A stretch of 17,225 bases of DNA from Pseudomonadota bacterium (GTDB lineage Bacteria > Bdellovibrionota > FAC87 > UBA2466). Positions 873-17,225 of the stretch are shown piece after piece. The first letter of the stretch is position 1. Each line of letters starts with the position of its first letter. Where the stretch lies: assembly GCA_043767805.1 (NCBI GenBank), contig JAYUGC010000025.1:1-17225 (forward strand). The letters run 5' to 3'. Both the position numbers and the translations under genes were made by a program. The notes below the pieces were generated by a model. It made no database searches. It worked only from the letters and a program-made list of their open reading frames with translations, and had not been told where the DNA came from.

Positions 873-901
873 ATGGCGGAGGGGAGAGGTATCTAACCTC
901 C
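873..901 (-). repeat. Degenerate direct repeat of the tRNA-Ser(GCT) 3' end (att-like site)
   Basis: atggcggaggggagaggtatctaacctcc versus 2279-2307 atggcggagaggagaggattcgaacctcc: 25/29 identical, same orientation. Confidence 0.8.
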
Positions 902-1089
902 TTTTTTCAAGCCATAGATTCCAAACACCAATCAAACAATAACCGAAAGTTACTCGTACCGCTTAGTGTACCCAGTTGCTCCCCTTAGCACGGATTTGTA
1001 CTCTGCCAACCCCCCGGGGGTTCTCCAATAGCCCCCAAAGGGTTCAAGACCGTTTCTCTCGAACCCCTCTCCCAACATAACTTTAATGA

Positions 1090-1118
1090 TTGAATTGTTC
1101 ACCTAATAGGTGTACATT
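1090..1118 (+). promoter_or_regulatory. Sigma70-type promoter overlapped by a palindromic operator (TA operon 2)
   Basis: TTGAAT(1090-1095)-17 nt-TACATT(1113-1118). Inverted repeat TGTTCACCTA-A-TAGGTGTACA at 1096-1116 (1 mismatch). GTG start at 1127 with no Shine-Dalgarno sequence. Confidence 0.65.
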
Positions 1119-1126
1119 TCTAGTCT

Positions 1127-1405
1127 GTGATACACCGGGTGCTACTCAGCAAGCGTGCAGTTAAAGATCTCGAGGACGTGCCGACTCACGTCGCGGTGAA
1201 GCTCCAAGCATGGAAAGACGGGGTCGAGGGGTTGGGGCTTGAGGAGATGCGCAAGCGGTCTGGGTTTCATGATGAGCCATTGAAGGGCGATCGGAAAGGA
1301 CAACGATCGATCCGACTGAGTCGTTCGTATCGTGCCATCTATCGAATCGTAAGAGACCAGGTCGTATTCGTCCTGGTCGAAGAGGTGAACAAACATGAGT
1401 ACTAA
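1127..1405 (+). CDS. RelE-superfamily mRNA interferase toxin (HigB/YafQ-like)
   Basis: 92 aa with the GFHDEPLKGDRKGQRSIRLSRSYRAIY motif. Upstream of and overlapping an HTH gene. Confidence 0.88.
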   Translation: MIHRVLLSKRAVKDLEDVPTHVAVKLQAWKDGVEGLGLEEMRKRSGFHDEPLKGDRKGQRSIRLSRSYRAIYRIVRDQVVFVLVEEVNKHEY

Positions 1406-1721
1406 ATTCAATCGTAAGGATTATGTGGATGCTGGTCCTGTCTTGGGAAAACTGACCAAGTCTGAGACTACTTTGGCAGGTTTGTTGGAGGCGATCCGCC
1501 TGGGCGAAGAAATGTCTCTTGCCGACTTTGCAAAACAACTTGGAATCTCTCGTTCGCACCTTTGTGACATTGAACAAGGTCGAAAAACGGTTAGCCCGGC
1601 AAGGGCCGCGAAATTTGCCAAGAAACTCGGATATTCTGAGAAACAATTCATCACTCTGGCTTTGCAGGATATCGTCCGTAAAGACGGACTTAAATTCGTT
1701 GTTAAGTTAGAAGCCGCTTGA
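1395..1721 (+). CDS. XRE/HTH antitoxin (HigA-like)
   Basis: 108 aa with IRLGEEMSLADFAKQLGISRSHLCDIEQGRKTVSPARAAKFAKKLG Cro/C1 HTH. Overlaps the toxin by 11 nt. Confidence 0.88.
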   Translation: MSTKFNRKDYVDAGPVLGKLTKSETTLAGLLEAIRLGEEMSLADFAKQLGISRSHLCDIEQGRKTVSPARAAKFAKKLGYSEKQFITLALQDIVRKDGLKFVVKLEAA

Positions 1722-1742
1722 GGGCTGCTAAGGATTTCGCCC

Positions 1743-2096
1743 ATGAGAAAATTCAAATACGAATTCTTGGCCAGAATGGCCTCGAAGGCTTTTCAGGAAA
1801 GATGGATTGATAAGGGCTCGACTGTAGACGGATATGTCGTTCCGGAAGAAATTCTGAATGACGCGTTCGCAGGTATGAAAAAGATCATTCTTGAGAATAG
1901 TGATGACCCCCTTAAAGAACGCGTCTTGAACTTGTACGTTTACTCTCTGAACGAATCGGAAAAATGCGCCGGTGACCAAATTTATGAGTCCAAGAGCTGG
2001 AAAAACATTCGAGAGGCTACTAGGGGTTTTCTAGAGCATCTGACAAATTTCGATTTGGCGGCCTGGGAGAAATCCGATTCCGCTGACTTAGATTAA
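1743..2096 (+). CDS. Hypothetical protein (cargo of the TA islet)
   Basis: 117-aa ORF 21 nt after the antitoxin, AAGGA upstream, followed by a hairpin. No family recognised with confidence. Confidence 0.7.
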   Translation: MRKFKYEFLARMASKAFQERWIDKGSTVDGYVVPEEILNDAFAGMKKIILENSDDPLKERVLNLYVYSLNESEKCAGDQIYESKSWKNIREATRGFLEHLTNFDLAAWEKSDSADLD

Positions 2097-2147
2097 GGCG
2101 GGACTTCTCGTTTTGTGAAATGGAACTCAGGCAATGAGTTGGAATGC

Positions 2148-2178
2148 AATCCTGGGGGTTGTAAACCCACAGGATTTT
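2148..2178 (+). terminator. Probable intrinsic terminator of TA operon 2
   Basis: Imperfect hairpin AATCCTGGGGGTT-GTA-AACCCACAGGATT ending in a short T run. Confidence 0.45.
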
Positions 2179-2255
2179 CGCCTAAAAAAGTCCCCTGGAA
2201 GCACCTGCCGACCCTAAGAACCCCCGGAATGAAAATCGGAAATCGTAAGTAGAGG

Positions 2256-2280
2256 ATATTTTTCACGTAGTGAAAAATAT
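2256..2280. repeat. Perfect 11-bp inverted repeat immediately 3' of tRNA-Ser(GCT)
   Basis: ATATTTTTCAC-GTA-GTGAAAAATAT abutting the CCA end; a terminator or att-associated element. Confidence 0.55.
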
Positions 2281-2371
2281 GGCGGAGAGGAGAGGATTCG
2301 AACCTCCGATACAGTTTAACCCGTATAACAGTTTAGCAAACTGCCGCCTTCGGCCACTCGGCCACCTCTCC
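2280..2371 (-). tRNA. tRNA-Ser(GCT)
   Basis: Reverse complement GGAGAGGTGGCCGAGTGGCCGAAGGCG-GCAGT-TTGCTAA-ACTGT, long variable arm, GGAGGTTCGAATCCTCT-CCTCTCC-G-CCA. Confidence 0.97.
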
Positions 2372-2437
2372 GCAGAGGCAATGAACTCTTAGCTTTAGCA
2401 CGCTAAATAGTTATGTTCAAACGACCCACGCCAAGGG

Positions 2438-2467
2438 TTGTCATTTTTCCCCGAGTTAGTGTAGGCT
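2438..2467 (+). promoter_or_regulatory. Putative sigma70 promoter for tRNA-Arg and tadA
   Basis: TTGTCA-18 nt-TAGGCT followed by a GC-rich discriminator-like stretch just before the tRNA. Confidence 0.45.
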
Positions 2468-2479
2468 CGGGGCCCTTAA

Positions 2480-2556
2480 GCGCCTGTAGCTCAGTTGGAT
2501 AGAGTAGCAGACTACGAATCTGCGGGTCAGAGGTTCGAATCCTCTCAGGCGCGCCA
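2480..2556 (+). tRNA. tRNA-Arg(ACG)
   Basis: 77 nt: GCGCCTG acceptor, TAGCTCAGTTGGATAGAGT D arm, GCAGA-CTACGAA-TCTGC anticodon arm, GGTTCGAATCC T arm, encoded CCA. Confidence 0.98.
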
Positions 2557-2616
2557 TTTTTTAAAGGTAATTAGCTTCGATCCAATCCCAGTAGGTAACC
2601 TTCCTCAAGGATAGTT

Positions 2617-3120
2617 ATGAAATCCCTACACGAAATGTGGATGCGCGAAGTCCTCTCCGAAGCCGAGCGCGCCGGCGTCCGGGGCGAAGTCCCCATGGCC
2701 GCGGTCCTCGTTCGAGACGGCGAGCTCCTCGCCGTAGGCTCAAACTTAAGAGAAGCGACCGGCCGAACGACAGCCCACGCCGAGATTCTCGCTCTTGAGA
2801 CCTACAATCAGCGCCACAACTCTTGGCGGCTTCCTCCCGGAACCACCCTGTATGTGAACGCCGAGCCCTGCCTAATGTGCGCGAGCGCTCTGATCCAAGC
2901 TCGAGTCGACGCCATTTATTACGGCTGCGACGATCCTAAGAACGCCGGCATTCGTAACCTCGCCTCTCTCATCGAAGAGAACCGCTTTGACCACAAACTC
3001 TCCGTCCTTCAAGGGGGAATCCTCGGCGAAGAGTCCGCTTCCTTACTCTCCGAGTTCTTCCGCCGCCGGCGCCTGCAGAAGGTAGCTGACAAAACCCTGA
3101 GCAGCGCCCTAGTTCATTGA
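2617..3120 (+). CDS. tadA: tRNA adenosine(34) deaminase TadA
   Basis: WMREVLSEAERAGVRGEVPMAAVLV, zinc motifs HAE and EPCLMC, YYGCDDPKNAG, LLSEFFRRRR. Adjacent to tRNA-Arg(ACG). Confidence 0.92.
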   Translation: MKSLHEMWMREVLSEAERAGVRGEVPMAAVLVRDGELLAVGSNLREATGRTTAHAEILALETYNQRHNSWRLPPGTTLYVNAEPCLMCASALIQARVDAIYYGCDDPKNAGIRNLASLIEENRFDHKLSVLQGGILGEESASLLSEFFRRRRLQKVADKTLSSALVH

Positions 3121-3383
3121 TTTTAAAGGGTTTTCCTTGTTTTTTATCCCCATCCCCTACTCTTGTATACTCGCGGAACACACGCGTAAATAGCAGTAAT
3201 CATTTAACCAAATAGAAAAACGCTCTATTTCTGCCTTTCCCTTATACGGGGTTTGAGCCTACTCAGTGCGTAACTCCCGGTGGTCCTCAGGTTGCATCCT
3301 TACCTAATGACCCCAACCTCACCTCTGAGACCCACTTCTCTCGAATTCCAGGTTTTCCGGCTCCTAACGCGACTAGGTTGCCT

Positions 3384-4073
3384 ATGCGATTTAACAAATG
3401 GCTTATCCCGGCCCTTCTTTTCCCCCTTTCGATGCTGGTCACCGGCTGCGATATTGTGGACCAGATCGCCGAAGGCAATCTCTCGCTCGAAATCGGCGGC
3501 CTCGTTTTGATTGGCCCGGGAGCGAAGCGAGAGAACGCGCCCATTCTGAGTGGCATTCCCAAGTTTCCAAAAAAAATCGAAGTTGAAAAGAAAGTTCAGA
3601 GCTGGGGAAGCTGCGAAAAAAACGCGCAGCCCTCCGGCGTCGAAGGGTTCCGCAAAGCCCAAGCCGAAGTCAGCGAAATTTGGGTCGCGACCTACGCCGG
3701 CGATCGCGTGGAAAAATTGAAAGTCGCTCGCAAGACGATCAATCTCTTTCGCTTGGCTTCGGAAGTATCCGCGCTTCTGACCGAAGCGCAAATCCCTTCG
3801 GGCGAGTACAAAGAAGTTCAGGTGATGCTTTCCAAAGCCATCGTCACCGACGCCTCCGGAAAAGTCTGGCCTCTCGATATTCCTGAAGGCGATAAGAACG
3901 GCGTTCGCATCCAGCTCGAGCGCAATCTCGTCATCGGCGAGAACGGAGAAAAGCCGCGCGTCTCACTGACCTTCTGCACGGAGTCCAATTTCGTTTTGGA
4001 AAAAATAGGAAACCAGAACCGAAAAATCGGCTTCCATCCGATCATCGATCAGGTCGCGAACCTCTCGCTCTAA
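3384..4073 (+). CDS. Lipoprotein, DUF4382-like
   Basis: ATG at 3384 gives signal MRFNKWLIPALLFPLSMLVTG-C (lipobox). INLFRL..LLTEAQIPSGEYKEVQV..PLDIPEGDKNGVRI resembles DUF4382. Confidence 0.7.
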   Translation: MRFNKWLIPALLFPLSMLVTGCDIVDQIAEGNLSLEIGGLVLIGPGAKRENAPILSGIPKFPKKIEVEKKVQSWGSCEKNAQPSGVEGFRKAQAEVSEIWVATYAGDRVEKLKVARKTINLFRLASEVSALLTEAQIPSGEYKEVQVMLSKAIVTDASGKVWPLDIPEGDKNGVRIQLERNLVIGENGEKPRVSLTFCTESNFVLEKIGNQNRKIGFHPIIDQVANLSL

Positions 4074-4081
4074 GCCACCGC

Positions 4082-5767
4082 CTAGCGCACGCCGGCACGC
4101 TTGTTGAGTCCATCGATGTATTTGCGGCCGGAAATTTTGTGGCAGAGATCGGCCACGTTGTCCGCCCCTTCCACACACAAGGTTCCCTTTAGCTTTCCGA
4201 AATAATCCAGAAGCGAGCGCTTCGTGCCGTCTTCGACGGGACTGAGCATGAGTATCGTGCCGCTCCCCTTGGAAGCCGCCCCACGCACCGTCTCGGAAAC
4301 ATAGCTCGCGTCTCCGCCGCCAGCGTCGACACCGCCGCCACCGGCCTCGCCGCCACCAAGCCCGCCGTAGGCGACCGACTTCGAGAAAGAATAACCGCCG
4401 CTACCGCCGCCGCCGCCCTCACCGCCACCTAGGCCGGAGAAAGGATCGCCGCCAAAATTTCCGCCTGGAGGAGCGCTCGCGCTACCGACGATGTTCGGCC
4501 CCATGGACCCGCCGCCACCAGAATCTCCGCCGCCAAAGCCGCCGCCAAATCCACCACCGCCGCTCATGCCGGGAAGCGGAGAGCTATTGCCTTGAGGGCC
4601 TTGGCCCTTGGCTCCCGCGAGCAGATTTTTCATCAGCTCGGAAGGATCTTGCTGAGGCTCTTCGGGGGGTGCTTTAGGCGTCTCCGCCTTCGCGTTCTTC
4701 TTATCGAGCTCGTCCTTCGACTTGGACGGAGGCAACTCGAATTTTTCCTCGGCTTTGCCGTCTTTGTTCTGATTGTTTTTATCGGTGTTGCTGTCTTTGC
4801 CTTTTAATAGCGCCGCCAAAGCACTGTTGTCGCCGCCGCCTCGATCGCCGCGATCTCGGTCAGGACGAGGGGGAGGTTCTATTTTTTTTGAGTCGTCCTC
4901 TTTTTTCCGCGGAGGCGGAGGAGGCTGATGCCCGGCGAAAGCGTTTTTCAAATCGCCCAGATCGGGAAGCGATCGGTTGCCGCCCTCTTCTTTATCCTTC
5001 TTGTCGTTCAAAAGGCCCGCTCTCAAAGCATCGAGCAAACCGCTGCTTTCACGATTACCACCGCGACGAGACGACGAAGCGCCCCGCTCGGCTTGCAGGT
5101 TTTTCAGCAAATCTTGGGTGAGAGCGAGCTGTTTTGCGACGAGGCTCTCTTCGGGATTTTTAGCCCTGGCCGCGAGCTGACCGAACTTCGCATCGAGAGC
5201 CGCTTGCAACTCGGGCCCCAGAGCCGCGTTACCGGCGAGCTGTCCGTTCGGAGCTTGAGGTTGCGCCGTTCCGTCTTGGCCGGCTTGCGGGTTTTTCGCG
5301 CCCGCGGTCTCGGGAGACGTCACGCGAGTGCTTTCCTTAGCTTCGAGTAAACGTTTCGCCGCCACATTGAGCTCAGTCCCCACGGGAGAGTTCTTCACGG
5401 CGCCGAGCTCGTTTTTAAAAAGAGTTTTTAGTTCATCCCCTTGGTCTTTGGTGACGGTTCCGCCGCTCGTAACTAAACCGTCCACCATCTCGTTGAACTT
5501 TGCGGGCGTAAGCGAGGGCGCTTTATCGGTGGCTTTCACGAGATCGCGCATGCCTTCGCTGGAAAGCTGAACCTGTTTGAGACCCTGAATGAGCGCTTCT
5601 TGCCGGGTAAGCACCGGAACCGAGGACTGGGGAGAGGTGGTCTGAGTCGCGGGCGGAGTCTTTTCTTCGCTGGGGGAGGCATGGGACTGCGGCTCCGCAT
5701 GAGCTTCCCAGCCCAAGGCTAATCCAGCCACTATTACTAACGCACACCAAGGAAAATAGGTCCGCAT
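4082..5767 (-). CDS. Secreted low-complexity Gly/Pro/Lys-rich hypothetical protein
   Basis: Long ORF. Likely start ATG at 5767 gives signal peptide MRTYFPWCALVIVAGLALGWEAHA, then a helical N-terminal part, charged linker, Gly-rich tract and a short C-terminal segment with two Cys. Confidence 0.8.
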   Translation of the reverse strand: MRTYFPWCALVIVAGLALGWEAHAEPQSHASPSEEKTPPATQTTSPQSSVPVLTRQEALIQGLKQVQLSSEGMRDLVKATDKAPSLTPAKFNEMVDGLVTSGGTVTKDQGDELKTLFKNELGAVKNSPVGTELNVAAKRLLEAKESTRVTSPETAGAKNPQAGQDGTAQPQAPNGQLAGNAALGPELQAALDAKFGQLAARAKNPEESLVAKQLALTQDLLKNLQAERGASSSRRGGNRESSGLLDALRAGLLNDKKDKEEGGNRSLPDLGDLKNAFAGHQPPPPPRKKEDDSKKIEPPPRPDRDRGDRGGGDNSALAALLKGKDSNTDKNNQNKDGKAEEKFELPPSKSKDELDKKNAKAETPKAPPEEPQQDPSELMKNLLAGAKGQGPQGNSSPLPGMSGGGGFGGGFGGGDSGGGGSMGPNIVGSASAPPGGNFGGDPFSGLGGGEGGGGGSGGYSFSKSVAYGGLGGGEAGGGGVDAGGGDASYVSETVRGAASKGSGTILMLSPVEDGTKRSLLDYFGKLKGTLCVEGADNVADLCHKISGRKYIDGLNKRAGVR

Positions 5768-8103: not shown

Positions 8104-8193
8104 GGAGAGGTGGCCGAGCGGTTGAAGGCGCACGCCTGGAACGCGTGTGGTGGCGAAAGCTTCCCGTGAGTTCGAATCTCACCCTCTCCGCCA
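8104..8193 (+). tRNA. tRNA-Ser(GGA)
   Basis: GGAGAGGTGGCCGAGCGGTTGAAGGCG-CACGC-CTGGAAC-GCGTG, long variable arm, GTGAGTTCGAATCTCAC-CCTCTCC-G-CCA. Confidence 0.97.
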
Positions 8194-12344: not shown

Positions 12345-13991
12345 GTGATTGCCCTCCTCCACGGCTACTTTTTAGATGGATCAGGAAGCGGCGTTTGGAC
12401 CCGCCAAATGGTGGAGGCGCTGTGTAAGCGCGGCGAAGACGTTTTACTCCTCTGCCAGGACCCGCGTTTTGATAAGTACGCGTTCGTTTCCCGCGCCTAC
12501 CGGTACGATAAGAGCGGCCGGCGCCATCTCGAGCTCGATCGGCCGAGCCGCTTTCGCGGCAAATGCCATCTCCATAAGATTTTCATCGGCCATCGCCTTC
12601 CCGTTTTCGTGGAAGACGCGTACGAAGGTTTTTTGACGAGCGTTCCCGTCATCGACATGAAAGAGGAGGAATGGGATGCCTACATCGACGCGCATCTCAA
12701 AATCATTCCCGATCTGATCAAAGAGTACGGCGTCGATTGCCTCGTCGTAAATCACGCCGCCCTTCTGTCGGTCGTCGGGCAAAAATTAAAAGCATCGATG
12801 GGCCTCCCTTACGCCGTCATTCCGCACGGAAGTGACTTGGAATACGCGGTAAGAAGAGATCCGCGTCTCCATAAGCGCACAGAGTCCGCTCTCGCCGAAG
12901 CGTCTCGCCTTTTTGTCGTGAGCCCCGAAATCCGCGAGCGGCTGAAAGAGGTTTATCCCAATCGTCCGGAGCTTTTGGCAAAGATGGATACGCTTTCCAT
13001 CGGAGTCGATACAACTCTGTTTCATCCCGTGCCAAAAAACGAAAAAGCGGATTCTTTTCAAAGTTTGGCGACCGACCTCGCTCGTCTCCCGACCGGCAAG
13101 GAACCCTCCCTTGAAAGAACGGCCCAAAGCTTGTTCTCGCAACTTCCCAAGCCCGAACGCTACTTGGGTTGGCTACGAGGCGCGGGGGCTTACGATGGCA
13201 AACGTCTTGAAAAAGGCGCCGTCGAAAATCTTTCCAAAATCGGCTGGGGCAAAGTTCCCGTCGCGGCCTTCGTTGGCCGGCTCATTGCCGCGAAGGGTTT
13301 GCAGAACCTAGTAGCAACCATGCCGTTTTTATGGCGCGAAGCCCCTCACCTTTATATAGCGGTCGTCGGGCATGGACCGCTCCGGGAAGTGGCCGAGCTT
13401 TTGCTCGCCGCACTAAAAACCGGAAACGTCCCTTGGGCGGAAGCCATCGCGCAATGGGGCAGTCCCACCGAAGGTGAGTCCGGACAAAGGTACTTCGGCG
13501 TGAGTGATTACTTTCAAATGCTTAAAAACACGCGGCGCTGGAACGACTACTGGCACGCCGCGAGCGAGATGCCCGTCGATAGATGGTGCTTCACCGGCTA
13601 TCTCGATCATGACGCTCTGGCCCGGCTCCTGCCTTTAACCGACTGCGCCCTTTTTCCCTCGGTGGTTCCCGAAGCTGGTCCCATGGTCTTACTTGAAGCG
13701 GCGAGCTGCGGAAGCTTTCCCATGGGCACGAACGTTGCCGGCATGGCTCACAATCTGACTCGTCTCTTCGAAGGCTTAGGGCCGGAGTACCCATCCGCCG
13801 CCCGCTTGCCGGCGAATGCCGCGAGGGCAATCGAGCGCATTGCCGTGCAGGTGCCCCAAGCCCTGGAGCTGGGGCCCACCGCTTCCTCCATCCTACGCGC
13901 CAATTGTGTGCGCAATTTCGACTGGAATAGTTTGGCTACCCGTCTACTTGATTCCCTCGTGACTACTCGCCAGGCGCGCGCCGCCAGATAG
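12345..13991 (+). CDS. Glycosyltransferase family 4 (GT-B)
   Basis: GSGSGVW N-terminal loop, IPHGSD, GVDTTLFHP, FVGRLIAAKG, FTGYLDH, E-x7-E motif EAGPMVLLEAASCG. Starts 9 nt after the nitroreductase. Confidence 0.9.
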   Translation: MIALLHGYFLDGSGSGVWTRQMVEALCKRGEDVLLLCQDPRFDKYAFVSRAYRYDKSGRRHLELDRPSRFRGKCHLHKIFIGHRLPVFVEDAYEGFLTSVPVIDMKEEEWDAYIDAHLKIIPDLIKEYGVDCLVVNHAALLSVVGQKLKASMGLPYAVIPHGSDLEYAVRRDPRLHKRTESALAEASRLFVVSPEIRERLKEVYPNRPELLAKMDTLSIGVDTTLFHPVPKNEKADSFQSLATDLARLPTGKEPSLERTAQSLFSQLPKPERYLGWLRGAGAYDGKRLEKGAVENLSKIGWGKVPVAAFVGRLIAAKGLQNLVATMPFLWREAPHLYIAVVGHGPLREVAELLLAALKTGNVPWAEAIAQWGSPTEGESGQRYFGVSDYFQMLKNTRRWNDYWHAASEMPVDRWCFTGYLDHDALARLLPLTDCALFPSVVPEAGPMVLLEAASCGSFPMGTNVAGMAHNLTRLFEGLGPEYPSAARLPANAARAIERIAVQVPQALELGPTASSILRANCVRNFDWNSLATRLLDSLVTTRQARAAR

Positions 13992-14084
13992 CTTGCCGCG
14001 CTCGTACAACTTTCGACTATTCAGATAGCCACGCAATTGCCCTTCAATCTGTTTCCTCAATAAGTAGAACTTTCTACGTTTCGC

Positions 14085-14112
14085 TAAACTTCGCTCCATC
14101 TTCGGTCGATAA
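14085..14112 (+). promoter_or_regulatory. Putative sigma28 (FliA) promoter
   Basis: TAAA-16 nt-GTCGATAA, about 58 nt upstream of the LysM gene ATG; GGAGG RBS present. Confidence 0.5.
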
Positions 14113-14170
14113 GCTTTAAGAGAAACGGGATTTCCCTTTATTTTTTTTCGGTTCCCCGGAGGCTACGGAT

Positions 14171-15475
14171 ATGAATGACGCGAAACTTAAGAACCTAGCT
14201 CTAGCGGCGGTAATCGGGCTCTTCGTAGGAGCCTGCGCCCATCAAGAGAGCAATCAGATTTCTGGCATGGAAAACGACGAAGGCGCCGCTTCCGCGGAAA
14301 CCGCCTCCTTGGGAGACTCCTTAGGAGATACGGGTACTTCTTCGAACGGAGAAGTTCCCTCCGAAATGGCGCCGCTTCCCGCATCTTCTACGGAAGGCGG
14401 AACGCAGGCTTCAACGGAAACCATGGACAACTTGGCCGGAGTCGCTTCCACGGAGGCGATGCCGACCGAAAACATTTCTCCCGAAGGCCCTTCCGCTGAA
14501 GTAGCCGCCGCCGCGAGCCCTGAAGCCCCGGCGACCTTGGAACCCACCTTAGTGGGTGCCGCTCCGGAAGCCTCCACGGCGGAAGCGCCGAAAGCGAAGG
14601 CCAAAGTCGCTAGCGCCAAGCCCCGCAAGGCCAGCCGCGCTCTCGTTCTGCCGAACGCTCCGGTCGAGCGCAAAGACGAATTGCTCAACCGCTTCTACAT
14701 TGCCCGTCCTTCCGATTCGGCCGAGAAACTTTCCGAGCTGATGTACGGCAACAAAGAAAAGGCGAGCGAGCTCAAAGCGTGGAACCCGGGCTCTTGGAAG
14801 ACCGGAAGCCTCATTTACTATCTTTCTCCTTTGCAGCCGGCTGACGGCGAAATGCGCTCCTTCTATACGGAACGCGGCATGGTGCCCACCGAGTACGAAG
14901 TGAAGCGCGGGGATACTCTCGCCACGATCGCGTTGGCTACCTACGGATCGAAAGACAGCTGGAAGGAAATCGGGCTACTCAACAATATTCAATCGCCCGA
15001 CAGCGTTGAACCGGGTCGTCGGATTGCCCTCTTCCCGTCCAACCTGAGTGGCTATTCATTGAAGCTCGAGACGACGAAGAGCGCGGTCAACACCGCCCCT
15101 CTCGACAAGCAGATTGACTCTCTTGAGAGCCAAATCAGCAAGCTCGAAGCCGATATCAAGAAGGAAGCTCCAGCCTCCCCGGTGGTTGCCGCCGATAACG
15201 ACAAAGGCGCTTTCGAAGCGGGTGTCGTCGGTTCGAAGCCCCTCATCGGCGACGGCGAGCACAAAGACTTGGCTGCCATCGGCCGCGAACGTCAAAAAGG
15301 ACGCGTGACCAACGGTGGCGCGGACGAAGACGGCGAAGCGGACTTGGCCTCGAGCGAAGTGGCTTCGTTCTTCAAGTCGAACCTAACCATGATTCTCGGA
15401 CTCGTCCTGGCCTTCGCGGCCTTGGGCATCTTCATGTTCGTCCGCCGCTCGCGCAACGAGCACGGCGACGTCTAA
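14171..15475 (+). CDS. LysM-domain lipoprotein with a C-terminal membrane helix
   Basis: Lipobox LFVGA-C, Ala/Glu/Ser/Pro-rich linker, LysM YEVKRGDTLATIALATYGSKDSWKEIGLLNNIQSPDSVEPGRRI plus a degenerate LysM (YIARPSDSAEKLSELMYG), coiled coil, and TM MILGLVLAFAALGIFMFV-RRSR. Confidence 0.88.
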   Translation: MNDAKLKNLALAAVIGLFVGACAHQESNQISGMENDEGAASAETASLGDSLGDTGTSSNGEVPSEMAPLPASSTEGGTQASTETMDNLAGVASTEAMPTENISPEGPSAEVAAAASPEAPATLEPTLVGAAPEASTAEAPKAKAKVASAKPRKASRALVLPNAPVERKDELLNRFYIARPSDSAEKLSELMYGNKEKASELKAWNPGSWKTGSLIYYLSPLQPADGEMRSFYTERGMVPTEYEVKRGDTLATIALATYGSKDSWKEIGLLNNIQSPDSVEPGRRIALFPSNLSGYSLKLETTKSAVNTAPLDKQIDSLESQISKLEADIKKEAPASPVVAADNDKGAFEAGVVGSKPLIGDGEHKDLAAIGRERQKGRVTNGGADEDGEADLASSEVASFFKSNLTMILGLVLAFAALGIFMFVRRSRNEHGDV

Positions 15476-15715: not shown

Positions 15716-16966
15716 ATGAAATCCCGCAACTGGGCTCTTACGGGCTTGGCCGTGCTCGCCGTCTTCCTCCTTTCGTGCCTCTTCTGGATCAACACGAGTG
15801 AGACGGACTTCATCAAGTACCGGTTTCCCGTCGGTAAACCCACGACTGACTTAGGTGAGCTCGCCGCTCTCGAGAAACGAACGAGGGAAATGCCAGGCCG
15901 GGCGCTCGATCTCTCGGACCTTGCGCTTCGCTACGTCAACCAAGCCCGTTCGCAGGCGAACCGCTCTTACTACGAAAAGGCGGAGCAAGCCGCGAAGCTT
16001 TCTCTGCATTTCCTTTCCGTATCTAATGCAGCCGCGCACGTAGCCCTCGCTAAGGTAAACGAGGCCAATCATCGTTTCGAAGAAGCCCTTGCGGAAGCGA
16101 AGTCCGGCTTGAAGGCCTCTCCGGAATCCATCGGGGCCTGGTCCGTTTTGGTCACGTCTCATCTCGCCCGTGGAGACGTCGAAGAAGCCGCCGCCGCCGC
16201 CGACAAGCTTGTCACCCTTCGGCCCTCCACCGGACATTACGCTCTACGCGGCCTCACCTTGCTCGGTCAAAACCGAGAAGAGGAGGCTCTTTTCAATTTC
16301 CGGAAAGGATTCTCCGTCGAAGAAGCCGGCAACCGCGGGGAGTCGGCCTGGTCGCGGGGTCTATTGGGAAGGCATTGGTTTGCCGTGGGCAAATACAAAG
16401 CCTCTGAAAACATTTTGAAGGAAGCGGCGCGTATCGCGCCCGAGTCAGATTTCATCCAATCGCTTCTGGCCGAGCTCTACCTAAAGAAGGGTGACTCGCG
16501 CCAGGCCGAGATTTTCGCCCAGAAAGCGCTGGAGCTTTCTCCTCAGCCACGTTACCTGAGACTTATCTCCCAAATTAAGACCGCGCGAGGAGACAAGAAA
16601 AGCGCCGAAGGCTATCTCAGGGAAGCGGAACATGCCGTCCGAGAAGAACTTTCCAAAAGCCGGCAAGGCCATCGCCTGGAGCTCGCGCAAATCCTTCTCG
16701 AGGGAGGAGGCAAAGAGCGAGCGGAAGAAGCCGTTCGGCTCGCCCGCGAAGAAACGGAGCTTCGCCGTAGCGGAGAGGCCTTCTATTGGTTCGCCCGGGC
16801 CTTCGCCGCTGTCGAAAAATGGCCGGAGGCGGCCACCGCGATCGAACAGAGCTTGAGGCGGGGAGAGAGAATTGCCGAGCGTTATCGCCTCGCCGCCGAT
16901 ATCCAGCGCCACTTGAATCATCCTCCCGGCGCGGCACTCTACGATCGCTTGGCTGACAGAAAATAG
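15716..16966 (+). CDS. Membrane-anchored tetratricopeptide repeat protein
   Basis: N-terminal TM/signal and repeated TPR-like helices (ALAKVNEANHRFEEALAEAK, LAELYLKKGDSRQAE..ALELSP). The stop codon lies inside the group II intron end. Confidence 0.85.
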   Translation: MKSRNWALTGLAVLAVFLLSCLFWINTSETDFIKYRFPVGKPTTDLGELAALEKRTREMPGRALDLSDLALRYVNQARSQANRSYYEKAEQAAKLSLHFLSVSNAAAHVALAKVNEANHRFEEALAEAKSGLKASPESIGAWSVLVTSHLARGDVEEAAAAADKLVTLRPSTGHYALRGLTLLGQNREEEALFNFRKGFSVEEAGNRGESAWSRGLLGRHWFAVGKYKASENILKEAARIAPESDFIQSLLAELYLKKGDSRQAEIFAQKALELSPQPRYLRLISQIKTARGDKKSAEGYLREAEHAVREELSKSRQGHRLELAQILLEGGGKERAEEAVRLAREETELRRSGEAFYWFARAFAAVEKWPEAATAIEQSLRRGERIAERYRLAADIQRHLNHPPGAALYDRLADRK

Positions 16967-17225
16967 GCATAGGGGCCCCGGCTGATCGCCGGGGAGCCCC
17001 TGCCACACCACCCGGCGTGCGGGTCCGCACCGGGCGGTTCGTAGTGTTGAGGTCACGAAGCCAGCCTTGGAATACCAAGTTGGTCGAAGTGGCGAATGGG
17101 AAAGGCTGCCTTCGAGACCCATGGTCAATTCACTCTTCTCTACGTTCAGCCCTTCGCTGCTTTTCTTTCAGCTACTACGGCCTCGGATGACTTCTCACTC
17201 CATCAGTCTTCTTTTTTTTCTTTCC
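16963..17225 (-). mobile_element. Group IIC intron, 3' part (DIII-DVI), RT ORF internally deleted
   Basis: Minus strand: GAGAAGTCATCCGAGGCCGTAGTAGC..GCGAAGGGCTGAAC (DII/DIII region, about 17197-17144), DV ACCGCCCG-GTGCG-GACC-CGCAC-GC-CGGGTGGT (17038-17007) with CGC triad, DVI with bulged A (16970), and a CCTAT 3' end. Confidence 0.88.
17053..17122 (-). pseudogene. Remnant of group II intron reverse transcriptase/maturase (probable start codons fused out of frame to the last ~18 codons)
   Basis: ATG GGT CTC GAA GGC after DIII. In another frame, AAFPIRHFDQLGIPRLAS* ends at 17053 and resembles class C intron-encoded protein C-termini. Confidence 0.7.

Follow-up and report, generated by a model that had tools for sequence, protein, structure and literature searches.

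A class C group II intron without its reverse transcriptase gene, at the end of a contig

The locus

The window, by which we mean the whole stretch of 17 225 nt that was analysed, is a complete contig (C25), and its right end falls inside an intron. The element occupies the minus strand of the contig end, where we find the last 263 nt of a class C (IIC) group II intron devoid of a reverse transcriptase (RT) gene (Table 1). A convergent gene coding for a protein with TPR repeats runs up to it, so close that the final 4 nt of the intron take in the stop codon of this gene; the 3′ exon, which starts with TTT, is the antisense of the end of that gene. The ORF track of the stretch bears no trace of the element. 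An earlier note on this DNA had proposed an ORF-less IIC intron that arose through deletion of its RT gene, and this proposal is borne out by comparison with full-length relatives.

Table 1. Coordinates of the intron, of its parts and of the neighbouring gene
Feature	Position	Strand	Remarks
Visible part of the ORF-deleted IIC intron	16963..17225	-	Covers the intron from the 3′ strand of domain II (DII) onwards; 3′ splice site at 16963
J2/3 junction and domain III (DIII)	17149..17212	-	RF01998 match
J2/3 catalytic trinucleotide	17186..17188	-	A-U-C, as against A-G-C in relatives; U at 17187
5′ remnant of the IEP gene	17107..17122	-	ATG plus 13 nt (16 nt); aligns with the GTG/ATG start region of relatives
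Deletion junction	17106..17107	-	About 1,304 nt of the RT/maturase gene missing between the two bases
3′ remnant of the IEP gene	17053..17106	-	Last 17 codons (AFPIRHFDQLGIPRLAS) and TGA, 54 nt; out of frame with the ATG
Domain V (DV), 32 nt	17007..17038	-	CGC triad 17036-17034; AC bulge 17018-17017
Domain VI (DVI)	16965..17005	-	Unpaired UA at 16971-16970
Convergent TPR-repeat gene	15716..16966	+	Stop codon TAG at 16964-16966

Domain layout

Upstream of DV the intron is recognized by the covariance model RF01998 (group-II-D1D4-1), which matches with 36.1 bits (E = 0.0018 for the window, 5.6e-05 for a 526-nt stretch), its gathering score being 35 bits. The match is borderline because the DII hairpin, the first of the model, is left unmatched and J2/3 carries two mismatches; among full-length relatives (n = 13) the same model scores between 35.1 and 61.4 bits. 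Of the two covariance models by which the earlier note had proposed to judge the intron call, this one speaks in its favour, while the other, RF00029 (Intron_gpII), finds no match in the window even at E ≤ 10, a miss that is uninformative because RF00029 reached its threshold in 0 of 6 and in 1 of 20 of the relatives' loci in two scans. A short stub of domain IV (DIV) separates DIII from DV. A gap of 108 nt separates 17149, where the RF01998 match stops, from 17040, the G of the GAACCGCC word at the opening of DV, in line with the distance of about 100 nt reported earlier.

The two 3′-terminal domains are those that had been described in the note, a DV with a CGC triad and a 2-nt bulge followed by a DVI with a bulged A and an AT end. 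DV is made of a lower helix of 10 pairs, where the G of the triad is engaged in a G.U pair, then of the 2-nt bulge, an upper helix of 3 pairs and a GACC loop; all of its 13 pairs are formed in the window, and 4 of them covary across 76 sequences. The candidate branch point in DVI is the A at 16970, 7 nt before the last base of the intron, the 3′ terminus of which is AT (16964-16963). The DVI helices also covary in the 76 sequences, and one basal pair is lost in the window through a G-to-U change at 16965. When the window and 75 distinct relatives are submitted to RNAalifold, 28 pairs are predicted in DV and DVI, 12 of them with compensatory changes, and the window forms all of these pairs but one. 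Compared with shuffled sequences the 263 nt fold with z = −3.5; for the DIV stub z is −2.2 only, and we draw no inference from it.

The end of the intron, ...CCCCTATGCCTAT, agrees with the ...CCCCTATGCCGAT of annotated introns, and its 3′ boundary is fixed because in one relative (L019) the next intron begins directly after that same end. A blastn search against plasmids returned 464 records, with E values down to 4e-17, and in several of the plasmid records listed the feature lying under the match is annotated as 'ltrA: group II intron reverse transcriptase/maturase'.

Full-length relatives and the deletion

Full-length members of this IIC lineage are found in plasmid 2 of Polaromonas sp. JS666, in plasmids of Azospirillum thermophilum and Rhizobium acidisoli, and in metagenome-assembled genomes (MAGs) of Polyangiales and others (loci L019-L021, L045, L050, L094 and L154 among them). 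They align with the window at J2/3-DIII, in the start region of the IEP, at the IEP C-terminus, along the spacer that follows the stop codon, in DV, in DVI and at the 3′ end. On the 3′ side the aligned stretches measure 110-148 nt and are 76-88% identical, on the 5′ side they measure about 90-95 nt and are 73-78% identical. Where they carry an RT/maturase gene of 1.3-1.4 kb, the window has none. They also have A-G-C in J2/3, G at position −3 and a visible domain I (DI, model RF02001), whereas the window has A-U-C and U at these positions and no visible DI.

These alignments place the junction to the base. Matches to relatives end at query position q119, that is 17107, for the 5′ half in 20 cases, and begin at q120 for the 3′ half in 37; among the 34 loci that carry both halves, 33 have 1,300-1,418 nt between q25-119 and q120-264, the distance being 1,304 nt in 16 of them. 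The earlier note had put the junction near 17107-17110, and the alignments give 17107|17106. The other landmarks which that note had placed in the gap are there as well: a purine-rich stretch reminiscent of a ribosome-binding site (17141-17126), then ATG GGT CTC GAA GGC (17122..17108), and an out-of-frame C-terminus, AAFPIRHFDQLGIPRLAS*, which closes with TGA at 17055-17053. Full-length relatives have IEPs that terminate in ...AFPI(H/Q/R)YFDQLGIPRLAA*, and the C-terminal remnant equals these ends; a Pfam search with the 23-residue remnant gave no match, as expected at such a length. The RT/maturase that the intron should encode in DIV is thus absent apart from 16 nt and 54 nt.

The junction is real and present in a single copy, because contigs of Logan, a second assembler, cross it without any difference in runs X1 and X2 (452 nt) and X3 (143 nt), at depths (7.1, 6.6 and 5.5, respectively) to be set against 7.95, 7.76 and 7.9 in the flanking gene, with the reservation that X1 and X2 possibly represent a single data set, and all three the source sample. 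The concern, voiced in the note, that the junction might reflect an assembly collapse is thereby answered.

The insertion site and a proposed history

In a sister genome (G001) a bidirectional terminator, made of AAAA, a GC-rich hairpin and TT, stands behind the orthologue of the TPR gene, and three relatives (L020, L021 and L087) begin directly behind a hairpin and a T run. By analogy, the most likely insertion point of the intron is behind such a bidirectional hairpin, one that would be located past the end of the contig. The history may then be put as follows. A copy of a IIC retroelement, which would have inserted behind this hairpin, sits on the minus strand directly behind the end of the convergent TPR gene. 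One internal deletion, some 1,304 nt long, has taken almost the whole RT/maturase gene away from DIV, and the copy that is left would be immobile and decaying rather than a proliferating mini-element.

The rest of the genome and related sequences

A blastn search with 326 nt located no other copy of the element in the assembly, the hits being short chance matches and a 42-nt similarity to the DV of another intron family of the genome (family A). None was found by DNA search in 60 related genomes, one of which gave a single chance match of 20 nt, and the exact 41-nt word spanning the junction had no match in the metagenome contigs of JGI. A scan of 150 further genomes from the phylum with RF01998 gave matches in 3. 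No match to RVT_1 (PF00078) or GIIM (PF08388) was obtained in the 204 contigs of the assembly, nor any to the DI model RF02001 (group-II-D1D4-3), and the right end of the contig shares nothing with the other 407 contig ends. The missing RT gene is weak evidence, however, because the assembly is without any intron bodies: the other group II introns of this genome are all broken at contig ends, and the bodies of two other families are evidently missing. These other introns are multi-copy, and one family is IIC-like; having a different IEP end and a different DV and DVI, it is a different sub-lineage.

Contigs from the same sediment study agree with the window on one side of the junction and then diverge, those of run X3 as far as 17109 with 1 difference in 49 nt, those of run X4 from 17106 with 9 differences in 94 nt. 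A close relative of full length would produce contigs of this sort, and non-deleted relatives may be present in that study. Runs X4-X20 hold small shares of the stretch only, from which no conclusion on habitat is drawn.

Two substitutions at invariant positions

The visible RNA (J2/3, DIII, the base of DIV, DV and DVI) keeps the fold of active relatives; at the base of DIV, CGUAG pairs with CUACG through changes on both strands with respect to relatives (judged by eye, uncounted). Two of its bases depart from what is otherwise invariant. The second base of the J2/3 trinucleotide is G in 60 of 60 matches in an intron context, obtained with a search pattern that left the four bases concerned free (a 61st match, L047, is a chance hit outside an intron), and it is U in the window, which lacks the A-G-C of the catalytic triple helix. 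Closer to the splice site, the G three bases before the 3′ end (alignment column 83) is present in 75 of 75 relatives; the window has U, at 16965. Several columns of this alignment owe part of their invariance to the way the relatives were gathered, with a regular expression that fixes them. Of the 49 conserved columns of DV and DVI the window departs from 1, and one or more such departures are present in 17 of the 76 sequences.

The A-U-C of J2/3 bears on activity, not on descent. In the intron of O. iheyensis, the passages of PMC3669008 and PMC7275048 that deal with this region place A287-G288-C289 in the catalytic triple helix, where the N7 of G288 holds a catalytic potassium ion, and they cite an earlier report that an N7-deaza change at G288 impairs the first step of splicing. 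What these passages provide on the J2/3 G is this N7-deaza result; they describe no effect of a G-to-U change.

Known introns without their protein

A review of 2015 (PMC4424553) calls ORF-less bacterial group II introns rare, and gives as the usual situation that the genome also holds an RT-encoding intron, closely related, that could act in trans. The TeI3 family of Thermosynechococcus elongatus, as presented in PMC2882425, resembles the present element in its single DIV deletion, in its remnants of both the N- and C-terminal ends of the ORF and in its disrupted frame. It differs from it in its 17 copies, which have one junction in common and move by means of related IEPs, and in that it belongs to another structural class; the window, in contrast, holds one copy with no sign of spread and with two changes at invariant positions of the ribozyme. 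The HYERs (hydrolytic endonucleolytic ribozymes; Liu et al., Science 2024), going by the account given in PMC12990946 and in bioRxiv 10.1101/2024.08.31.610620, are ORF-less IIC introns with a hydrolytic nuclease activity, a protein-free and sequence-specific cleavage of RNA or DNA. They share with the window the status of ORF-less IIC intron RNA; in the window the J2/3 G is changed, and DI, the part that recognizes the target, is outside the visible sequence.

The nearest counterpart comes from the same lineage. A MAG of Deltaproteobacteria (contig JBKDQC010000696.1, locus L087) contains an intron that is 79.7% identical over 143 nt and has likewise suffered an internal deletion of its ORF, keeping the last 16 codons or so, with a 3′ endpoint within 3 nt of that of the window. 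This intron is complete, from a hairpin with TTTT and a GTGCG start through RF02001 (at 546-716) to DV (at 1050), and its J2/3 is A-G-C. A common origin of both deletions was considered and rejected: towards the 5′ end of the ORF, 123 nt that are missing from the window survive in L087, which for its part lacks a GCC codon common to the window and to the full-length copies, so that its deletion is an independent one. Another locus, L118, had at first sight seemed to have the same 3′ junction, an impression that was abandoned, its homology extending, by eye, about 45 nt further upstream.

Remnant or working ribozyme

With its RT gene almost wholly deleted, the intron has no protein of its own and cannot move by itself. 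The earlier note had left the choice between a mini-element mobilised in trans and a relic; the evidence leans towards the latter, and we consider, with moderate confidence, that we are dealing with a decaying, immobile remnant. The copy is single, no second one exists in the assembly or in the 60 related genomes, two substitutions are unique to it and no RT gene has been assembled. Against this reading, DV, DVI, DIII and the base of DIV are otherwise undamaged, and the deletion spares the ribosome-binding and start-codon region. In the lactococcal intron this region is the main binding site of the intron's protein; since it is retained here, a protein supplied in trans might still bind. The same intact domains, which fit the covarying consensus, together with the retained start region, would suit a ribozyme that still functions without its protein, either spliced or mobilised in trans in the manner of Thermosynechococcus, or acting alone as a hydrolytic ribozyme in the manner of HYERs. 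The multi-copy introns of the genome, with their IIC-like family, the possible non-deleted relatives in the sediment study and the complete ORF-less intron of L087 go in the same direction, as do the mobility of the T. elongatus introns with remnants of both ORF ends (PMC2882425) and the nuclease activity of which ORF-less IIC introns are capable (PMC12990946, bioRxiv 10.1101/2024.08.31.610620). Yet this working ribozyme would be single-copy by depth, would have its junction nowhere else in the assembly, in none of the 60 related genomes and in no exact match of the JGI metagenomes, would carry U in place of two invariant Gs, and would have as its resident IIC-like companion a family of a different sub-lineage, all of which makes it an unlikely, if serious, alternative to the remnant.

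It might also be thought that the intron begins only around 17204-17201, the A-rich 21-24 nt at the contig end being an unrelated flank, so that we would see a dead fragment, truncated at its 5′ end, whose DI was never there or has been lost. Similarity to relatives does begin there (q22-25) and not at q1, the DII hairpin of RF01998 is unmatched, and no partner for the 3′ strand of DII is apparent, by eye, in the 24 nt upstream. Furthermore, 3′ fragments without DI or DIII are common: 8 of 20 relative loci had neither RF02001 nor RF01998, and in 7 of these 8 at least 1.9 kb upstream of DV was available. However, the two strands of DII are at least some 27 nt apart in relatives, which would put the 5′ strand here just beyond the contig end, and a DI match would also fall beyond 17225, because in relatives a distance of 16-50 nt separates RF02001 from RF01998 downstream of it. 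The first bases at the contig end resemble, by eye, the 3′ end, of GGAAAG type, that the DI model has in L023; the plus strand at the contig end is T-rich, instead of showing the A run and hairpin expected of the 5′ exon; and beyond 17225 Logan contigs go on for another 197 and 239 nt with no change in depth. A truncated fragment is, on these grounds, improbable. As for an artefact, be it a collapsed full-length intron, misjoined contigs or terminator hairpins that look like DV and DVI by chance, we hardly believe in it. The contig does stop inside the element, as the other introns of the genome break at contig ends, and RF00029 has no match; but the second assembler gives the same junction in three runs, without differences and at even depth, the hairpins bear the conserved DV and DVI flanks of 75 relatives, and RF01998 and the IEP remnants follow each other in the right order on the right strand. 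Terminators were rejected as an explanation of the hairpins, no terminator-like site being called in 16700-17225.

Loss of the protein gene in this lineage

ORF-deleted IIC introns, though uncommon, have been described before, and the present copy is probably inactive. The kind of element, the mechanism of the loss and its possible afterlives (mobilisation in trans, HYER activity or decay) have all been published, and no new question is opened. The practical value of the case is for annotation, the ORF track being blind to such an element. With its exactly mapped junction and relatives that were deleted independently (L087, L072 and L118), it is also a clean example of the loss of a protein gene in retroelements.

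A bolder view, to which we give a slim chance, would have it that loss of the ORF is recurrent and selected in this IIC lineage, the copy in the window being a working protein-less ribozyme, mobilised in trans or HYER-like, that tolerates the U of J2/3. What suggests recurrence is that the two independent deletions, in the window and in L087, which their labels assign to different phyla, stop no more than 3 nt apart and leave the same last 16-17 codons in place. If this view were true, these codons would be an RNA element required by the ribozyme, the 3′ strand of DIV.

Identity and boundaries of the intron

The element at the right end of the window is real and ordinary in kind. As it lies on the minus strand, it is read from 17225 to 16963, and it runs into the contig end because the window comprises all of contig C25, in an assembly of 204 contigs and 4.52 Mb. 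An intron of class C (IIC) without its open reading frame had been proposed at this place from the sequence, and the analysis confirms it. A covariance-model match exists: RF01998 (group-II-D1D4-1) scores 36.1 bits at 17212..17149 (minus strand), above its gathering score of 35. Among full-length relatives, the region that RF01998 detects comprises DII, J2/3 and DIII, and the DI model, RF02001, always matches 16-50 nt upstream of it. The other Rfam model, RF00029 (Intron_gpII, for DV/DVI), gave no match in the window even at E <= 10, a failure without weight, because the same model also failed on 6 of 6 relatives' loci in one set and 19 of 20 in another. By blastn of 266 nt against 72,556 plasmid records, 464 records matched, with E down to 4e-17; the matches span 17090 to 16963, and the annotation beneath reads 'ltrA: group II intron reverse transcriptase/maturase' in several of the records listed.

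Relatives were collected as three annotated plasmid introns (Polaromonas sp. JS666, Azospirillum thermophilum and Rhizobium acidisoli) and by two pattern scans, both built on a C-terminal peptide motif, which gave 121 loci in species-representative genomes and 30 in metagenome contigs. The closest (L174, L151, L154, L160 and L112; identity 84-88% over 110-146 nt) are on contigs from soil, sediment and wetland-type sources, or in MAGs with labels such as Polyangiales. The window's own family contributed none, 60 related genomes being without a real match, and, of 150 other genomes in the phylum, only 3 gave an RF01998 match.

The last 78 nt (17040..16963) were aligned with 75 distinct relatives, and for this alignment RNAalifold predicted 28 pairs, 12 of which keep pairing through two-sided changes, as in column pairs 9/30 (GC 32, CG 31, UA 8, AU 3), 12/28 (GC 46, AU 30) and 41/80 (CG 48, GC 27). 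Some of the column invariance is a product of the regular expression used to gather these relatives, which placed no constraint on the covarying columns. The 3' boundary is fixed at 16963, in agreement with the earlier note, since in the Polaromonas plasmid locus (L019) another intron starts directly after the corresponding ...GCCGAT.

Features of the window and of related ORF-deleted introns
Feature	Position	Strand	Basis or remark
IEP gene 5' remnant, ATG GGT CTC GAA GGC A; purine-rich stretch upstream of the junction too	17122..17107	-	aligns with relatives
Deletion junction	17107/17106	-	match ends in relatives
IEP gene 3' remnant, GCC TTT CCC ... TCG TGA, reads AFPIRHFDQLGIPRLAS*	17106..17053	-	compared with IEP C-termini
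DV	17038..17007	-	alignment and RNAalifold
CGC triad of DV, G in an invariant G.U pair	17036-17034	-	alignment and RNAalifold
DV bulge AC	17018-17017	-	alignment and RNAalifold
DVI	17005..16965	-	alignment and RNAalifold
Unpaired UA of DVI	16971-16970	-	alignment and RNAalifold
Intron 3' end, ...CCCCUAUGCCUAU	16963	-	alignment with relatives
TPR-repeat gene	15716..16966	+	profile match, TPR_19 1.6e-14
LysM-domain protein gene, upstream of TPR gene	14171-15475	+
Glycosyltransferase family 4/1 gene, upstream of TPR gene	12345-13991	+
Three tRNA genes, two with long variable arms	2283-2371, 2480-2553, 8104-8190	-, +, +	RF00005, 57-68 bits
L087 (Deltaproteobacteria MAG), complete ORF-less IIC intron of the same lineage	465-1126	+
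L072, only the RT (fingers/palm) part missing, maturase part kept; DIII to DV 569 nt	1844-2722	+
L118, gross deletion; first 75 nt or so of DI joined to roughly the last 30 IEP codons		- (of locus)

Loss of the reverse transcriptase gene

In relatives, the 5' and 3' parts of the element align to two separate places on one strand. The points adjoining in the window lie 1,300-1,418 nt apart in 33 of the 34 loci carrying both parts (exactly 1,304 nt in 16 of these), and 123 nt apart in the remaining one, L087; the proposed deletion of the RT gene from a IIC intron is thus supported. The 5' matches stop at query position 119 in 20 cases and the 3' matches start at query position 120 in 37, which places the junction between 17107 and 17106. 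Upstream of it, the 5' remnant lines up with the region where the IEP genes of relatives start (GTG/ATG); downstream, the 3' remnant may be compared with the full-length ends AFPIHYFDQLGIPRLAA*, AFPIQYFDQLGIPRLAA* and ALPIRYFDQLGIPRLAA*. Read across the junction, the two remnants are mutually out of frame, as the earlier note had said. A 215-codon ORF at 16481..17128 (minus strand) continues from the start region across DV and DVI into the TPR gene's antisense strand; it finds no support as a gene.

A collapse during assembly could mimic such a junction. The stretch is present in three runs (X1-X3) of one sediment-metagenome study, which may be the assembly's source and two of which may be one data set; the Logan contigs of these runs are the product of another assembler. 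A 452-nt contig over 17013-17225 (X1, X2) and a 143-nt contig over 17018-17157 (X3) cross the junction with 0 differences, and summed depth is 7.1, 6.6 and 5.5 (X1, X2 and X3) in intron-specific bins, against 7.95, 7.76 and 7.9 in the TPR gene; the junction is thus no collapse, and each genome has one copy. DV (16996-17041) and J2/3-DIII (17175-17199) recur, at 90% or more, in many other community contigs. One X3 contig (record 23) matches 17109-17157 with 1 difference, then departs from the window at the junction, and one from run X4 (record 31), departing there too, matches 17013-17106 with 9 differences and has 220 more letters upstream; this is the pattern that a relative without the deletion would give. 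Two more joints, 17039 to 17169 and 17040 to 17171, join DV to DIII in other contigs.

Loss of the ORF puts the window's copy in an already known kind, of which it is a further example. According to a 2015 review of group II intron evolution (PMC4424553), ORF-less introns are rare in bacteria and nearly always reside in genomes with related IEP-encoding introns. T. elongatus is described as having 17, mobilised by related IEPs and, like the window's, showing one DIV deletion (theirs of about 1.5 kb) with both ORF ends remaining (PMC2882425); ORF-less IIC introns are catalogued as a group under the name HYERs (Liu et al. 2024, as cited in PMC12990946 and bioRxiv 10.1101/2024.08.31.610620). The deletions in L087, L072 and L118 indicate that ORF loss recurs in this lineage. 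L087 shows, in order, a hairpin with TTTT, a GTGCG start, a match to RF02001 (546-716), some 200 nt of DIV, DV and DVI; its deletion, independent of the window's, has its 3' endpoint 3 nt from the window's 3' breakpoint, a proximity that may be chance or may reflect a requirement for the ORF's last 50 nt as RNA.

An active or a decaying copy

The RNA domains that can be seen are well preserved. Across the 49 DV/DVI columns conserved at 90% or more, the window departs from consensus at 1, while 17 of 76 sequences deviate at one or more; the column is 16965, U in the window and G in 75 of 75 others, and the outermost DVI pair is broken. J2/3 reads A-U-C-C, against A-G-C-A or A-G-C-C in relatives. 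The search pattern left these four bases free and gave 41 matches in L019-L145 (AGCA 32, AGCC 6, AGCT 1, AGAA 1, and one in L047, a chance match outside an intron) and 20 in L146-L175 (AGCA 12, AGCC 8); the second base is therefore G in 60 of 60 intron copies. The fourth-place C, common to the window and its close relatives, is harmless, and only the U at 17187 is the window's alone. The corresponding trinucleotide of the O. iheyensis IIC intron, A287-G288-C289, joins the triad and bulge of DV in the catalytic triple helix (PMC3669008), and the N7 of G288 is described as holding a catalytic potassium ion, an N7-deaza change there impairing the first splicing step in an earlier report cited by the same source (PMC7275048). 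A uridine has no N7, and we infer that the U at 17187 would disable the window's copy.

A helper acting in trans, the other reading proposed at the outset, could come from a related intron, and the assembly does hold other group II introns, with bodies unassembled. They are stubs of 85-99 nt at contig ends (L002-L008): family A has three identical 98-nt 3' ends, at the right ends of C67, C81 and C84 (RF00029, 49.5 bits), and family B four, at the right ends of C160 and C151 and the left ends of C185 and C168 (34 bits). A profile search of the assembly found no RVT_1 or GIIM match, and RF02001 matches nowhere in it; the bodies of both families therefore did not survive assembly or filtering. 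Family A is IIC-like, and in DV/DVI it resembles the intron at L024, which has both D1D4 models. The IEP gene of family A extends as far as DV, and DVI and the 3' end are unlike the window's, so that this family belongs to another sub-lineage. The window's element is most likely a decaying single copy.

Six contig ends enter a GTGCG-type intron-like 5' end (C158, right; C76, C189 and C155, left; a variant pair, C190, left, and C117, right). All are preceded by the same 18 nt (AACCATTCAGTAAAAAAG), with unrelated DNA before it, which points either to a conserved homing site or to another short repeat with an intron inside it.

The 5' exon and 5' splice site, together with DI and the exon-binding sites, would lie past 17225. 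No other contig end of the assembly overlaps C25 on its right side; the 452-nt Logan contig continues for 239 nt and a 295-nt X3 contig for 197 nt. Similarity to relatives starts only at 17204-17201, and the 21-24 A-rich bases preceding it have no counterpart there. These could be a variable DII loop, its 5' strand just past the contig end, or could mark a truncation point of the intron. Fragments without DI and DIII are frequent among relatives: 8 of 20 loci scanned had neither RF02001 nor RF01998, 7 of them with at least 1.9 kb upstream of DV.

Insertion site and neighbourhood

The 3' exon of the intron is the antisense of the end of the TPR gene, whose TAG stop (16964-16966) falls inside the intron's last four bases. 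The intron's final bases (minus strand) complete the last codon and TAG (16961-16966, plus strand), so insertion reshaped the C-terminus of the TPR gene. In the sister genome G001, the orthologous gene (61% identity) stops one residue further on, and after it come AAAA, a GC-rich hairpin and TT, together a bidirectional terminator. A hairpin with a T run also stands directly before the start of the L020, L021 and L087 introns, and starting there is a known habit of IIC introns. Probably the intron entered the T run of a terminator that serves a convergent transcript. None of the hairpins of the window's intron was called as a terminator. The genes at 12345-15475 (plus strand) look like a cell-envelope neighbourhood.

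In Polaromonas sp. JS666 plasmid 2 (L019, about 890-4603, plus strand) two IIC introns stand head to tail, the second starting at the base adjoining the 3' end of the first, as if the DVI of the first were the target hairpin of the second.
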